Below are positions 2,189-8,967 of a DNA stretch of 37,592 bases, piece by piece. The notes under the pieces were generated by a model. That model saw only the letters and a list, made by a program, of their open reading frames with translations. It was not told where the DNA came from and did not search any database. Each line of letters starts with the position of its first letter. Position 1 is the first letter of the stretch. Origin of the DNA: Candidatus Iainarchaeum sp. (GTDB lineage Archaea; Iainarchaeota; Iainarchaeia; Iainarchaeales; GCA-2688035). Location: positions 1 through 37,592 of the forward strand of contig JAFCCL010000011.1 in NCBI GenBank assembly GCA_017610205.1. Reading direction: 5' to 3'. Made by a program: the position numbers and the translations under genes.

Positions 2189-3205
2189 ATGTCAAGTTCA
2201 AAAACTGCAAAAACTAAAAGCACTGCTTTTGTTCCTGTTCCTCCAAGAATAATTGACCAGGTTGTTGGACAGGAGAAAAGTGTTGCCTTGCTTAAAAAAG
2301 CTGCTGTGCAGAAGAGAAATGTTTTGCTTATTGGAATTCCTGGAACAGGAAAGAGCATGCTTGCACAGGCAATGGCTGAAATAATGCCTGTTTCAAGGCT
2401 TCATGATGTTTTAATTTATCCAAATCCTGCCGATCAAAACAATCCAAAGGTAAGAGTTGTAAAGGCAGGTTCTGGAAAAAAGATTTTGCAAAAGACAAGG
2501 CTTGAAGCAAAAAAGCAGGATGACAACATGCGTCTGCTTAGTTTTTTGCTTCCAATGGGTGCGTTCATTCTTTCACTTGTAATCTGGCAGCTTGGATGGG
2601 TTCCTGATGTTGTTTTTGCTGCCTTGCTTTTGCTTGACGGTCTTTTGATGATTGGTTTTGGTCTTGGAATGCAGATGAAACCGCGTGGTGTAAAACACAC
2701 TCCAAAGCTTTTGATTGACAATGCCTCAAAAAAAACTGCCCCATTCCTTGAAGCAACAGGGGCAAGGGCTGGTTCCCTTCTTGGAGATGTGCGCCATGAC
2801 CCGCTTCAATCGTTGATTGACGAAGTTAGATTTGTTGTTTGCCGTGCCGGTCTTGAGGAAAAGATTTCCTTTGAAAACTTATGGAAAGAAATGGCAACAA
2901 AATATCCTGAGTTAATTGAAAAACATGAGAAAGGCTATGAGGCAATGGTTTTCCCAAGAGAAGAAGCAGTTTTTGTTTATGGTGTCAATGATAGAAAAGA
3001 GATTGTCAAGTCAAGAATCTATTCAATGAACAGAAAGCCTTATGATGATGAAGTGGTTGAAGTTTCTGTTGGTGAATCAAAAGTTACCTTAACCCCTGAA
3101 CATAGTGTTATAACTAAAAAGGGTGACAGAAAAGCCGAAAAACTTTCCAAGGACGATGAGCTAATTAAAATAGTTAAGCTTGAGCTTGCAAAAGCTTTCA
3201 GTTGA
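2189..3205 (+). CDS. lonB: LonB protease N-terminal half (aa 1-207) fused to N-terminal split-intein fragment (aa 208-338)
   Basis: IIDQVVGQE, Walker A GIPGTGKS, two transmembrane helices, and GSLLGDVRHDPLQ. Lon similarity stops there and intein-like sequence with block B TPEH follows. Confidence 0.93.
   Translation: MSSSKTAKTKSTAFVPVPPRIIDQVVGQEKSVALLKKAAVQKRNVLLIGIPGTGKSMLAQAMAEIMPVSRLHDVLIYPNPADQNNPKVRVVKAGSGKKILQKTRLEAKKQDDNMRLLSFLLPMGAFILSLVIWQLGWVPDVVFAALLLLDGLLMIGFGLGMQMKPRGVKHTPKLLIDNASKKTAPFLEATGARAGSLLGDVRHDPLQSLIDEVRFVVCRAGLEEKISFENLWKEMATKYPELIEKHEKGYEAMVFPREEAVFVYGVNDRKEIVKSRIYSMNRKPYDDEVVEVSVGESKVTLTPEHSVITKKGDRKAEKLSKDDELIKIVKLELAKAFS
2810..3202 (+). other. Split intein N-fragment (IntN, 131 aa, starts with Ser1)
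   Basis: Begins S-LIDEVRF directly after DVRHDPLQ, a known archaeal LonB intein site (HDPxQ/SGGLGTP). Contains VTLTPEHSVIT (block B TxxH) and KAEKLSKDD, a typical Hint N-domain end. Confidence 0.88.
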
Positions 3206-3385
3206 AAAAAGCTCACCACCTCCACTATCGGAATTTTTTCTTACGACTTGTGTGTTGTTCGGCTTAAACCTTTGCACATCTAATTCTTGTTCTATTAGTG
3301 CAAAGGATTTAATGCCTCCAACGCACTACCGTCTCCAGAAAAAATTTCGAAATCTTTTGGAGGTGGTTCGGTTTGATTTTTTCAA
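3202..3385 (+). ncRNA. ~185-nt rod-like imperfect hairpin (structured RNA or MITE-like insertion), family unknown
   Basis: Nested pairings: TTGAAAAAA/TTTTTTCAA, ACCACCTCCA/TGGAGGTGGT, CGGAATTTTTTCT/AGAAAAAATTTCG, GAC/GTC, GTGTGTTG/CAACGCAC, GGC/GCC, TTAAA/TTTAA, CCTTTGCAC/GTGCAAAGG, TAAT/ATTA. The mismatches within stems read as G-U pairs on the + strand. Confidence 0.55.
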
Positions 3386-3499
3386 AAAATTTAAATTCTT
3401 CAAGTGGAGGAAGTTTAAAAAGGCTTTATAAATTTTCACCGGAAACCCGCTCTTTGCAAAGCGGCTTAAAAGCAAAAAAACAAAAATCTTACGAGTTCT

Positions 3500-4481
3500 A
3501 TGTTACTTGTTAGTGAACAAGATATAATCAATACTTATTCAGAGAAGGAACAACTCTCTTGCAAAAAATATTCTAAGTACAAAGAGTTAATCAAAGAAAA
3601 CCCTTCGTTTGGCTATAAACGTTGTGCAAAGTTACTGGGCGTTCCGCAGGGAAGGACAAGATGGTGGCATGCCAAGGGGGAAAAGAAAGCAGTTCCTTTG
3701 GCTTTGAAAACAGTCAAAAAACTTAAGTAGAAGGGCTTTCTACCTTTTTATACAAGCCATAAGCACTGCATATCTATTCTAAGAATTCTTGGTGTTCTTT
3801 TTGGTGACGGAGGTATTGACAGAAGGCTTAACACCCTAGCCTTCATTTCAGCAGACAAAAGAGATATTGACTTGTGGGGGAAAGACTTGCTGGAAATCTT
3901 CCCTTTTCTTTCAAACAAGATAAATTTGACTGAGGGGGGAGAGTATGGCCACTCCTACAACATCAGAACCTTTGATAGGAATGTCATCAGATTCTTTGTC
4001 GCACTTGGCACTCCTGTTGGAGATAAGGTTGCAATAAAGTATACTCTTCCGAAATACATTTCGAAACTGTCCGGGAACCACAAAATAGCTTTTCTAGATG
4101 GTTTGCTTTCTTCTGAAGTTTCAGTCACCACTTTTCGTGAAGACACGCGGGAACCGGAAAAGACGTTTCACAAATTTTGCTTTGGGATTAAGTAAGATAG
4201 ACTCTCTTGAACAAGAACACAAAAACTATCTTGAAAATTTAAAGAAATTATGTGCTTCAATTAACTTAACTTGTACTCCCAATTTGAGAAAAGAAACCAG
4301 CAAAATAAACCAGAGAAAGGACGGCCACCTGAGTTGCTGTTACCGAATCTTCTTTCAAACTCATTTTGAAAAAGTGATAAAATTCAACAAATCTTTCCCG
4401 TTAAGATATTGTCAGGACAAAAAGGAGCGCTTGCAGAAGGAAATAGAATTTGCATTAAAATACAAAAACGTAGGCAGCTAA
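3500..4481 (+). pseudogene. Free-standing intein-type LAGLIDADG homing endonuclease, disrupted by an in-frame TAG (3728-3730) and a frameshift near 4150
   Basis: Reading through the TAG gives KGFLPF...ILGVLFGDGGI (motif 1), in frame with ORF 3872, which carries AFLDGLLSSEVS (motif 2). The C-terminal part continues in the frame of ORF 4098-4481. An HTH-like GYKRCAKLLGVP lies near the N-terminus. Confidence 0.85.
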
Positions 4482-4615
4482 TCCGGCTTCCTAATCAAAT
4501 GAATAGTGGGTGTAAATTCTCAGCAGGTGTTAATATCATCATTGCCTGTTAGACAATATAAAAGATAAATGATTTAATTGTTGGCTTTCAATCTTTTGTT
4601 TTAACTTGCTTTAGA

Positions 4616-5061
4616 TTACTCGATTTTTGTTATTGTTTTGCTTTGTTTGTATTTTTTCCAGTAGTCTTTGAATTGTTCTTTCGTGGATTCTTTTATCCAT
4701 TTTCTTCCAAGTCGTTTTGATTTCTGAATGAATTCTTTTGTAAGGTGTTTTGATGCCGGGCACTTTGTTTCTATTACAAGGAAATTTCTCCCATCTCGTT
4801 GTAGATTGGATCTATTGGGTAAAGAATGCAATCAATTGGTTTTGCATGCTGGATTGAACACTTGCCTCTTTTAAAGTATTTGCAGAAGCCCTTTTCTTTC
4901 CGTGTAACGTAATATCCAAGAGCTTCTTTTTTGAAGTAGTCTTTTTTGGTCTTTTTAAGGATTTTTTCTTTTTCTTTCTCGGATACTCTTGGCGTTCCTT
5001 TGCAACAGTTAACTTTGCAGTTTTTGCAGTAAGAGTAGAGGCTTAATTTTTCTGAGAGCAT
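4616..5061 (-). pseudogene. YkgJ-family (Zn/Fe-chelating cysteine-cluster) protein, split by a 1-nt frameshift near 4780
   Basis: CKNCKVNCC...CKYF...CSIQHAKPIDCILYP in 4774-5061. The expected continuation LVIETKCPAS... is in the adjacent frame (ORF 4616-4831). Confidence 0.7.
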
Positions 5062-7476: not shown

Positions 7477-7506
7477 AGCAAGCAATGCCTAATCAAAAGC
7501 TAACAA

Positions 7507-7513
7507 TTTAAAC
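7507..7513 (+). promoter_or_regulatory. TATA box for a probably leaderless IntC-LonC transcript
   Basis: TTTAAAC lies 24-30 nt upstream of the ATG at 7537, the canonical archaeal spacing. Confidence 0.55.
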
Positions 7514-7536
7514 CCTTTCCAACATTACTTTTTTCA

Positions 7537-7668
7537 ATGAACGAGAAGAAATTCAAAACTAATTCGGAAAAAGTTTCCTCAATTTCAAAAAGGCCATTCA
7601 AGGGTCATGTCTACAATGTGACAACAGAAACAGGAAACCTTTTTGTTGAAGATATTTTGGTTCACAAT
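7537..7668 (+). other. Split intein C-fragment (IntC, 44 aa)
   Basis: Block [17 protein letters not shown] and block G ILVHN, followed by Ser+1 (SGGLGTP). Confidence 0.93.
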
Positions 7669-8967
7669 TCAGGCGGCTTGGGTACTCCTGCTCATTTAAG
7701 GGTGGAACCAGGAATGATTCACAAAAGCAGTGGCGGGGTTCTTTTTCTTGATGAGATTGCTACCTTAAGTCCAAAGGCACAGCAGGAGCTTTTGACTGCA
7801 ATGCAGGAAAAAAAGTATAGTATAACCGGGCAAAGCGAGCTTTCAAGCGGTGCAATGACCAGAACAGATCCTGTGCCATGCGATTTTGTTTTGGTTGCTT
7901 CTGGAAATTATGCAGATCTTGCAAAAGTGCATCCTGCTTTAAGAAGCAGAATCAGGGGCTATGGTTATGAAATTTATATGAATGTTGACATGCCTGACAA
8001 TGAGGAAAACAGGAAAAAGCTTGTGCAGTTTGTTGCACAGGAAGTTAAAAAGGATGGAAAAATTCCTGCTTTTAGCTTAAGTGCGGTTGATGAAATAATT
8101 TTTGAGGCCAGAAGGCGTGCTGACAGAAAGAACAGGCTTACTTTAAAATTGAGGGACCTTGGCGGTCTGATTAGGGCTTCTGGAGATATTGCAAAAGAAA
8201 AAGGCCATTCTGTTGTAATGCCTGAAGATGTTGTTCAGGCAAAGTTTAGTGCAAAAACTCTTGAACAGCAGATGGTTGACAAGTCTCTTGAATTGAAAAA
8301 AGAGTATGATGTTTACCTTACAAAGGGTGCTGTTGTTGGCAGGGTTAATGGTCTGGCTGTAAGCAGTGACGGTTCGGCAGGAATGATTTTGCCTATTGAA
8401 GCTGAAATGGCTCCTGCTGCAAGCAGAAGCGAGGGCAGAATTATTGCAACAGGAAAGCTTGGAGAGATTGCAAAAGAAGCAGTTCAGAATGTAAGTGCGC
8501 TGATTAAAAAGGTCAGCGGTAAGGATGTCAGCAGGCATGATTTGCATATTCAGTTTTTGCAGACCTATGAGGGTGTGGAAGGAGACAGTGCAAGTGTAAG
8601 TGTTGCCACTGCTGTAATAAGTGCGGCTGAAGGAATTCCAATAAAACAAAGTCTTGCAATGACTGGTTCGCTTTCAGTAAGGGGCGAGGTTTTGCCAATT
8701 GGAGGAGTTTCAAGCAAGATTCATGCTGCAATCAGAGCAGGATTTAAGGAAGTTATTATTCCAAAGTCAAACATGGCTGATATTGTTTTAACAAAAGAGG
8801 AGCTGAAAAAAATAAAGGTCCTTCCTGTTTTAAGTCTGAATGAGGTTTTAGAAAATGCTTTTGTTGACGGCAACAAAACAACAAAGCTTCTTTCATCCTT
8901 AAAGAAACTGCTTCTTTTTTTACCAAAAACCAGTACAAAAACTGTTGCAAAAAAAAGCGTTTCCTGA
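7537..8967 (+). CDS. lonB: IntC fused to LonB protease C-terminal half
   Basis: After [12 protein letters not shown], Walker [19 protein letters not shown], catalytic Ser in VEGDSAS, AMTGSL, and PIGGVSSK with the catalytic Lys. Confidence 0.96.

Follow-up and report, generated by a model that had tools for sequence, protein, structure and literature searches.

To our knowledge, natural split inteins are few and occur mainly in DNA-metabolism genes of cyanobacteria, phages and one nanoarchaeon. The halves of cyanobacterial DnaE are encoded at distant loci and use Cys1 and Cys+1 as nucleophiles, and in Nanoarchaeum equitans, which has a small genome of the DPANN type, a naturally split intein joins the halves of an essential enzyme, PolB, for which we know of no associated endonuclease gene. 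According to Humberg et al. 2026 (PMC13014065), a canonical split intein consists of an N-intein (IntN) of ~100-120 amino acids (aa) and a C-intein (IntC) of ~35-50 aa, separated at the endonuclease insertion point. The fractured genes presented by Dassa et al. 2009 (PMC2677866) comprise 26 metagenomic, mainly phage-like loci, with DNA synthesis or repair genes as hosts throughout (gp41, IMPDH, DnaE, NrdA, NrdJ, ligase and terminase), endonucleases of the GIY-YIG or Vsr-like type and spacers of 27-51 nucleotides (nt). LonB appears among the intein hosts surveyed by Novikova et al. (PMC4760082), with 10 inteins in Euryarchaeota, and the available part of that article mentions no split form. The present study concerns a stretch of 37,592 nt from Candidatus Iainarchaeum sp. 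(assembly GCA_017610205.1, contig JAFCCL010000011.1), referred to below as the window, in which the gene of the archaeal protease LonB is broken into two separate genes. Judging from its sequence, this lonB is very probably a fractured gene whose products would be joined via a canonical, naturally split class-1 intein. The suggestion in the original prediction that such an intein may be undescribed still holds, since no description of a split Lon or LonB intein was found in a literature search that covered few subscription journals and no supplements.

The two genes and their parts are located as follows:

2189-3205, plus strand: gene of the LonB N-half with the N-intein, 338 aa (LonB residues 1-207 followed by 131 aa)
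2189-2809, plus strand: LonB N-extein, residues 1-207, ending GDVRHDPLQ (TIGR00764 positions 4-195, E 9e-56)
2810-3205, plus strand: N-intein, 131 aa, starting SLIDEV with Ser1 (TGA stop at 3203-3205)
7537-8967, plus strand: gene of the C-intein with the LonB C-half, 476 aa (44 aa followed by LonB residues 208-639)
7537-7668, plus strand: C-intein, Met and 43 aa, ending ILVHN (core nearly invariant in 120 C-halves)
7669-8967, plus strand: LonB C-extein, 432 aa from Ser+1 (SGGLGTP) to the stop codon (TIGR00764, 643 bits)

Both open reading frames (ORFs), their lengths and their junction residues are as originally described, the exteins adding up to 639 aa (207 + 432). With the NCBIfam model of LonB (TIGR00764), the C-half spans model positions 180-607 and scores 643 bits vs a cut-off of 516.6, and the N-half alone reaches 189.6 bits, under the cut-off because it represents only a third of the protein; Pfam matches in the C-half are Lon_C (E 2e-33), LonB_AAA-LID and pieces of AAA. 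The separation of Walker A from Walker B and the Ser-Lys dyad, which had also been claimed, is confirmed by motifs that are invariant among homologues: Walker A (GTGKS; G52, G54, K55 and S56) sits in the N-half, and Walker B (D72, E73) and D350-S351...K394 (C-half numbering) are all in the C-half, the break falling inside the AAA+ module with Walker A on one side and Walker B on the other. In addition to Walker B, the C-extein holds the LID domain and the Lon_C protease domain. Residues ~113-163 of the N-extein are hydrophobic (hydropathy exceeding 1.6 in windows at 113-145) and form a putative membrane hairpin, so the N-half is probably membrane-anchored. A full-length archaeal LonB, with Walker A and B, membrane insert and Ser-Lys protease domain, is thus present across the two halves. 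The junction reads RHDP(L/F)QSGGLGTP, uninterrupted, in 18 of the 20 contiguous LonB genes of relatives (one exception has a contiguous intein at the junction site, and the other falls outside the motif used); excision of the 131 + 44 residues would therefore restore a normal LonB, in line with the original prediction. Named source records list the N-halves as 'ATP-binding protein' in metagenome-assembled genomes of Candidatus Diapherotrites or Iainarchaeum and the C-halves as 'LonB', and 'sigma 54-interacting transcriptional regulator' was also met; under such names, the split is currently unrecognised.

The conservation of the intein halves was followed in two surveys, one of the best 120 of 541 N-half relatives at E <= 1e-10 (within the length range searched), 116 of which were aligned, and one of the best 120 C-half homologues. 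The N-half homologues are 50-100% identical to the query, mostly over at least 94% of its length, intein included, and the median IntN length is 130 aa (119 homologues). Residue 1 of IntN is Ser in 62 and Cys in 54 of the 116 aligned N-halves, in which block B is likewise fixed (T 116, P 115, E 115, H 116) and W25 and N74 are invariant. In the window, block B reads T-P-E-H at intein residues 95-98, within TLTPEH. All 120 C-halves have the terminal Asn and Ser at position +1; the penultimate intein position is occupied by His in 92 of them and otherwise by Lys (16), Ser (8), Ala (2), Tyr (1) or Cys (1). Cysteine is missing altogether from 33 of 63 Ser1 IntN and from 117 of 120 IntC sequences; in the window, the single Cys of IntN (intein residue 11) is non-catalytic, and IntC is Cys-free and carries a basic N-terminal tail with a net charge of +5 across the first 22 residues. 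A profile built from 97 N-halves matches the solved Mja KlbA intein (2jmz_A, E 1.8e-7), and precomputed PF14890 matches exist for homologues P0043, P0096 and P0102; phmmer comparison of the window IntN alone with PDB gave chance-level matches only.

Both intein halves are under purifying selection, similar to that acting on the exteins. Between the window's own genome (G000) and its closest relative (G004), the ratio of nonsynonymous to synonymous substitution rates (dN/dS), calculated by the Nei-Gojobori method at dS of ~0.4-0.6, is 0.14 (IntN), 0.10 (IntC), 0.07 (N-extein) and 0.10 (C-extein), and values of 0.08-0.18 were obtained for the intein parts in other unsaturated pairs. IntN and IntC are separate translation units, the first closed by the TGA at 3203-3205 and the second opened by its own ATG at 7537. 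Stop read-through or recoding after IntN was considered and ruled out by several in-frame stops past 3205, and is also countered by the non-coding spacer of 264-294 nt in G000, G004 and G006. A search among longer proteins with residues 208-338 for a fused form of the window IntN returned only P0241, which ends after IntN, and counts as weak evidence.

The same break recurs in many relatives, as had been proposed for checking. In a first set of 40 related genomes, a contiguous LonB match was obtained in 23 (one of them intein-containing), a two-piece LonB in 11, the window's genome included, and a three-piece LonB in 2, the rest being contig-end fragments; in the loci of this set that were read, N-halves stop 125-134 aa past HDPLQ, and C-halves begin with Met and ~38-44 aa ending (H/S)N, followed by SGGLGTP. 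Across the order, 50 of 196 genomes (29 of 73 genera) have the IntN sequence, which lies in short open frames in 47 of these genomes and in contiguous inteins (ORFs of 1,124-1,158 aa) in the other 3; a sample of the whole phylum added one more genome (51 of 215). Loci were fetched from 40 IntN genomes, in all of which the N-half ends 122-177 aa past HDP(L/F)Q, with Ser as residue 1 in 22 and Cys in 18. Both halves lie on one stretch in 28 of them, with a Met-led IntC of 39-45 aa. The gap table built from these 28 loci omits nine genomes with only an N-half at a contig end (G140, G128, G147, G098, G112, G181, G124, G099 and G165), two in which no Met occurs 30-60 aa before the junction (G132 and G129) and G039, whose halves are on two contigs. 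The distance from IntN stop to IntC start ranges from an ATGA overlap (G214) through 287 nt (G048) up to 4,331 nt, and a full-length, uninterrupted endonuclease frame stands between the halves in 19 of the 28 loci, with degraded endonucleases in 2 (the window and G031) and none in 7. The endonuclease gene of G015 spans two contigs. In G039 the halves are at least 5.8 kilobases (kb) apart, and the sequence around them (2.4 kb at the N-half, 3.4 kb at the C-half) showed no endonuclease.

The window's genome, 92% complete at 1.37 Mb in 24 contigs, yielded no second LonB with the LonB model, to which only the two halves matched, so that the check for another lonB called for in the original prediction has so far come out in its favour; one further protein has a Lon_C domain and no ATPase. 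Eight other two-piece genomes likewise have two LonB matches each and no third, and G022 has a C-half only. G038 encodes a contiguous LonB of 1,130 aa (Pfam Intein_splicing, 56.7 bits) with its intein at the same insertion site as the split one.

Thus, the reading as a naturally split intein is supported at the level of sequence in all that it predicts: the conserved break, the splicing residues, purifying selection and a single LonB in the genome as far as found. Several points weigh against it. Trans-splicing is predicted here from sequence. The window N-half taken by itself stays below the cut-offs of two intein models, intein_Nterm (22.1 vs 24.5 bits, E 2e-4) and Intein_splicing (16 vs 35.8 bits, E 0.011). 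The penultimate His, the loss of which reduces activity in some inteins, is substituted in 28 of 120 C-inteins, and the invariance of Ser+1 is not independent evidence because this Ser belongs to a conserved LonB motif. A second lonB is not fully excluded, since the genome is 92% complete, and the 4.3-kb gap of the window, the largest of the 28, is that of the assembly. On balance, we infer trans-splicing of the LonB halves and regard the split intein as real, conserved and most likely functional, within a decayed fractured-gene cassette.

The sequence-only basis of the predicted ligation and the 28 C-inteins in which the penultimate His is gone would also fit intein halves acting as a non-splicing, high-affinity dimerisation module, LonB then being a non-covalent two-chain enzyme. 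As presented in PMC3045599, a fragmented ribonucleotide reductase assembled through mobile-element-derived interaction domains provides a precedent. This is improbable, as binding alone would not confine residue 1 to the nucleophiles Ser and Cys in 116 of 116 N-halves, nor fix Thr and His of block B or the terminal Asn of 120 of 120 C-halves, and the break cuts through the AAA+ module so as to part Walker A from Walker B.

The signals of expression and the endonuclease remnant that accompany the split lonB are the following:

2157-2163, plus strand: TATA-like A/T-rich box TTTTAAA, 32 to 26 nt before the N-half ATG, with the same geometry as the C-half box
7507-7512, plus strand: TATA-like box TTTAAA, 30 to 25 nt before the C-half ATG, kept in relatives
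3425-3432, plus strand: TTTATAAA box, 75 to 68 nt before the endonuclease ATG, in a part of the spacer conserved with G004 and G006
3500-4481, plus strand: pseudogene of a free-standing homing endonuclease, delimited by tblastn with intact orthologues

As the original prediction had it, the C-half has its own ATG and, upstream of it, a TATA-like box. An equivalent A/T-rich box is located at an equal distance before IntC in 13 of 13 genomes compared, regardless of what lies upstream, and in G004 it falls inside the 77 nt separating the endonuclease stop from the IntC start. From their position and conservation, both TATA-like boxes are putative promoter elements, and the TTTATAAA box is a candidate functional element of the spacer. 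This spacer, from the IntN stop to the endonuclease gene, is 294 nt long and rich in stops in the window and 264-283 nt long in G004 and G006; a hairpin considered within it was discarded, not being cleanly kept in G004.

The endonuclease pseudogene has only two lesions, an in-frame TAG at 3728-3730 and a frameshift at ~4139-4146, which leave an ORF from 3500 (in the frame of the N-half), a second piece at 3731-4192 and a post-frameshift piece at 4146-4481. It aligns over its whole length with intact proteins of ~330 aa in relatives; in tblastn, endonuclease residues 4-234 fall in one frame and 220-326 in the next, at 69-70% identity to G013. The remnant is a mosaic, with an N-terminal part 88% identical to G004 and a C-terminal third that is 70% identical to G013 and 47% to G004. 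The protein comprises an N-terminal helix-turn-helix and two LAGLIDADG-like motifs, which we take to be LFGDGGI and FLDGLLSSEVSV. Among 33 aligned family members, Pfam LAGLIDADG_3 is matched in 5 and HTH_23 in 11, and the remnant matches the endonuclease region of NCBIfam RtcB_rel_intein (E 1e-6); the LAGLIDADG assignment is made because of these family and region matches and the two motifs. The intact G004 endonuclease matched no Pfam family, and the profile of the endonuclease family found nothing meaningful in PDB (best E 0.032). A full scan of 1.84 billion representatives yielded 277 endonuclease relatives at E <= 0.001, some of them free-standing proteins of ~300-400 aa and others domains within proteins of 600-2,300 aa, a size that fits intein-embedded endonucleases. 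Since an endonuclease remnant, overlooked in the original prediction, occupies the gap, the locus is a fractured gene, a known architecture.

The distribution of the split was compared with a maximum-likelihood tree of 31 C-exteins, which omits G036 (motif filter), G024, G028 and G032 (no locus), and G007, G023, G027 and G031 (partial or three-piece). The tree tracks genus and family labels, and the split state is scattered over it: nine changes between split and unsplit are most parsimonious, at least five of them forced by well-supported branches, and split states cluster no more than shuffled labels do. The split G021 has an almost identical unsplit counterpart in G020, the unsplit G003 is nested among split genomes in the window's genus, and Ser-type and Cys-type IntN N-termini likewise do not follow taxonomy. 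Such patchiness, together with intact endonuclease genes, is consistent with a cassette spreading by homing into empty lonB alleles, with occasional loss.

The mechanism proposed for the window would thus start from two mRNAs, each transcribed from its own TATA-like promoter. The first product would be LonB(1-207)-IntN(131 aa), with Walker A and the putative membrane hairpin, and the second IntC(44 aa)-LonB(208-639), with Walker B, the LID domain and the Ser-Lys protease domain. IntN and IntC would assemble into a single HINT domain, in which an N-O acyl shift at Ser1, attack by Ser+1 and cyclisation of the terminal Asn would release a 639-aa LonB with the native junction HDPLQ-SGGLGTP. As to history, the break would have originated at the endonuclease insertion site of an intein, and in most relatives the intact endonuclease probably lets the IntN-endonuclease-IntC cassette home into empty lonB alleles. 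In the window, the endonuclease gene is dead, and a 3-kb segment would since have been inserted between its remnant and the IntC promoter; the cassette would therefore be immobile and LonB dependent on trans-splicing. A broader proposal is more tentative, and we hold it to be somewhat less probable than its opposite: the three genes IntN-endonuclease-IntC may constitute a mobile element that is still homing among cellular DPANN archaea, sometimes with a cargo gene. The split would become fixed and obligatory for the sole LonB after the death of the endonuclease, the halves then drifting apart with the build-up of DNA between them (0 to 4.3 kb in the 28 loci, separate contigs in G039). Living genomes of the lineage would accordingly display every stage from contiguous intein via fractured gene to dispersed split genes like those of cyanobacterial DnaE, and the lineage would hold the largest natural family of Cys-free Ser1/Ser+1 split inteins.

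Some further arrangements of the lonB loci were observed in relatives. A gene of ~227 aa at L030:3842-4522, a borderline match to Pfam Zn_dep_PLPC (27.2 bits vs a cut-off of 26.8), is matched in nine relatives, that of L030 included, the other loci being L028, L066, L078, L075 (two copies), L069, L025, L032 and L087; it lies between the LonB halves wherever both share a stretch, like cargo of the cassette. G214 (L089) belongs to a different order within this class; its LonB halves meet in an ATGA overlap, with an IntN of 177 aa, an IntC of 40 aa ending VSN and no endonuclease gene. The three-piece LonB of G023 (L030:4632-7789) and G031 (L029:275-3408, minus strand) has a second break, at which the N-fragment keeps the splicing domain, the endonuclease domain and a C-terminal helix-turn-helix (~500 aa), and a C-fragment of ~42 aa begins at an ATGA or TAATG start/stop overlap; the same LonB middle piece is found in at least 14 database clusters (618-640 aa). 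Retention of the endonuclease on the IntN side seems an unusual condition for a split intein. In L030:1303-3768 (G023) and P0241, a contiguous LAGLIDADG intein lies in the LonB P-loop (GTGK|C...HN|S), upstream of the split IntN. Together with the second break and the split site, the P-loop intein brings the possible intein sites of LonB in this lineage to three. The intein load of G000 is high, with 12 other ORFs (701-1,448 aa) containing contiguous inteins by the Pfam splicing model on contigs C1, C3, C4, C9, C10, C14 and C16 (loci L046-L053 and others), the LonB intein being the only split one seen in that genome.

The additional DNA between the endonuclease remnant and the C-half consists of the following features:

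4490-4499, plus strand: left copy of the 10-bp direct repeat CCTAATCAAA, abutting the insert
4500-7487, no strand assigned: secondary insert of 2,988 bp, missing from G004
4774-5061, minus strand: Cys-rich ORF of 95 aa
5062-5436, minus strand: PanD aspartate decarboxylase, full-length Pfam match
5400-6710, minus strand: AAA_14/DUF4143 ATPase, full-length Pfam match
6849-7184, plus strand: short ORF with a WYL domain
7150-7476, plus strand: ORF of 108 aa
7488-7497, plus strand: right copy of CCTAATCAAA, abutting the insert

G004 is collinear with window positions 2146-4026 and 7487-8969, without the insert, and has one similar site (GCCTAACCAAAA) at the corresponding place. CCTAATCAAA has two matches in the window vs 0.27 expected, with two or more in 3 of 100 shuffles, and the pair resembles a target-site duplication or a microhomology join. 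The 4.3-kb spacing exists here because of this secondary 3-kb insertion. The wide spacing noted in the original prediction is present in the assembly, the split itself being widespread and patchy in the lineage and the spacing secondary. The accompanying claim of intact halves with decaying genes between them is right for the halves and for the endonuclease gene (3500-4481) and wrong for PanD and the AAA_14/DUF4143 ATPase, which are full-length; the insert genes appear intact, except for the short WYL ORF. The closest copy of the ATPase gene in the same genus is on another contig of G004.

A dispersed repeat of ~28-55 nt with the core TCATCATTGCCT occurs twice within the insert (window 4520-4580 and 6805-6858), at 7 further places in G000, and in G003-G006 and G017; the two internal copies are 73% alike over 41 nt, and the repeat may represent the end of a mobile element or a regulatory motif. 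At 6712-6772, directly upstream of the ATPase gene and before the WYL ORF, are two palindromes in tandem, AATGTTACTAAATTTAGTAACA and TGTTACTAAAACAAGTAAC, which may be an operator. Elsewhere in the window, a Cys-rich ORF of 334 aa at 119-1123 has internal repeats (...TSWSP.TSTVC...FTQTSNC.RTRSA.GT... and ...SYNSSI.GC.N.GNYTPCPS..., two copies each), and an Rfam scan of the window found no RNA family.

The arrangement in the window might be an assembly artefact, the true halves lying ~1.3 kb apart as in G004 or being contiguous, given that the spacing comes from the assembly of a 24-contig genome and that short dispersed repeats occur inside the insert. This is very unlikely: the split itself is seen independently of the window assembly, an assembler would hardly be misled by a flanking repeat of 10 bp, G004 has a recognisable pre-insertion site, and the internal repeat copies are only 73% alike over 41 nt. 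Least likely, by a small margin, is that lonB is dead, a contiguous intein having been wrecked by endonuclease decay and insertion with the ORFs as undegraded remnants, for although the endonuclease gene is broken, foreign DNA separates the halves and small symbiont-like archaeal genomes lose genes, the halves are intact across 338 and 476 codons with dN/dS of 0.07-0.14 vs G004, the stop and restart positions recur across many genera (40 genomes), a search for another LonB gave none and the IntC promoter box is conserved.

If the split-intein reading is true, natural split inteins gain a membrane-anchored protease as host and a whole order of DPANN archaea, with many natural variants available (541 N-half relatives at E <= 1e-10). 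Empty alleles, contiguous inteins, fractured genes with live endonucleases, decayed endonucleases and widely separated halves coexist in the lineage, and comparison of these stages makes the proposed origin of split inteins by gene breaking directly testable. This would be of value both for intein biology and for protein engineering, in which cysteine-less split inteins are rare and sought after (PMC13014065), and about half of the Ser1 variants found here are Cys-free. Only four usable cysteine-less split inteins are counted by Humberg et al. 2026 (PMC13014065), who consider that more are needed.

Among these tools, the biochemically tested CLm/Aes123 PolB1, LCGC14, PolB16 OarG and CL (PMC13014065) use Ser1 and Ser+1, as do the Ser1 variants among the LonB split inteins, which are predicted from DNA. 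The position of the break in the window, with 131 + 44 aa and the endonuclease gene exactly between the halves, is that of the canonical split site as defined there (PMC13014065). The comparison with the fractured genes of Dassa et al. 2009 (PMC2677866) is closest in gene order: relatives have all three genes on the same strand, the C-half comes with putative control elements of its own, and, as in part of the present loci, the gp41-7 locus lacks an endonuclease. The order N-host with IntN, endonuclease, IntC with C-host is found on one strand in the 19 of 28 relatives' loci that have an intact endonuclease; the window keeps this order, but its endonuclease is a pseudogene, followed by the 3-kb insert with minus-strand genes. 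That article (PMC2677866), whose main text contains none of the words LAGLIDADG, archaea and Lon, covers loci that differ from the present one, in which the host is a membrane protease gene of a cellular archaeal chromosome, the endonuclease combines LAGLIDADG-like motifs with a helix-turn-helix, and a spacer of 294 nt follows IntN in the window. The euryarchaeal contiguous LonB inteins (PMC4760082) share the host protein and differ in being single ORFs with an embedded endonuclease. The contiguous intein of G038, also a single ORF with an embedded endonuclease, has the identical site (HDPLQ|C) and homologous splicing blocks. As with cyanobacterial DnaE, an essential enzyme is encoded by two intein-half genes split at the canonical site, a state fixed in a lineage without an endonuclease; unlike those of DnaE, the LonB halves are 0-4.3 kb apart in the 28 loci (on separate contigs in G039), the nucleophiles are Ser1 or Cys1 with Ser+1, and split and unsplit alleles coexist in sister genomes. 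The PolB of Nanoarchaeum equitans differs in host gene, intein family and lineage. Relative to known fractured genes, what is new here is the host gene, the archaeal lineage and the type of endonuclease, the architecture itself being known.

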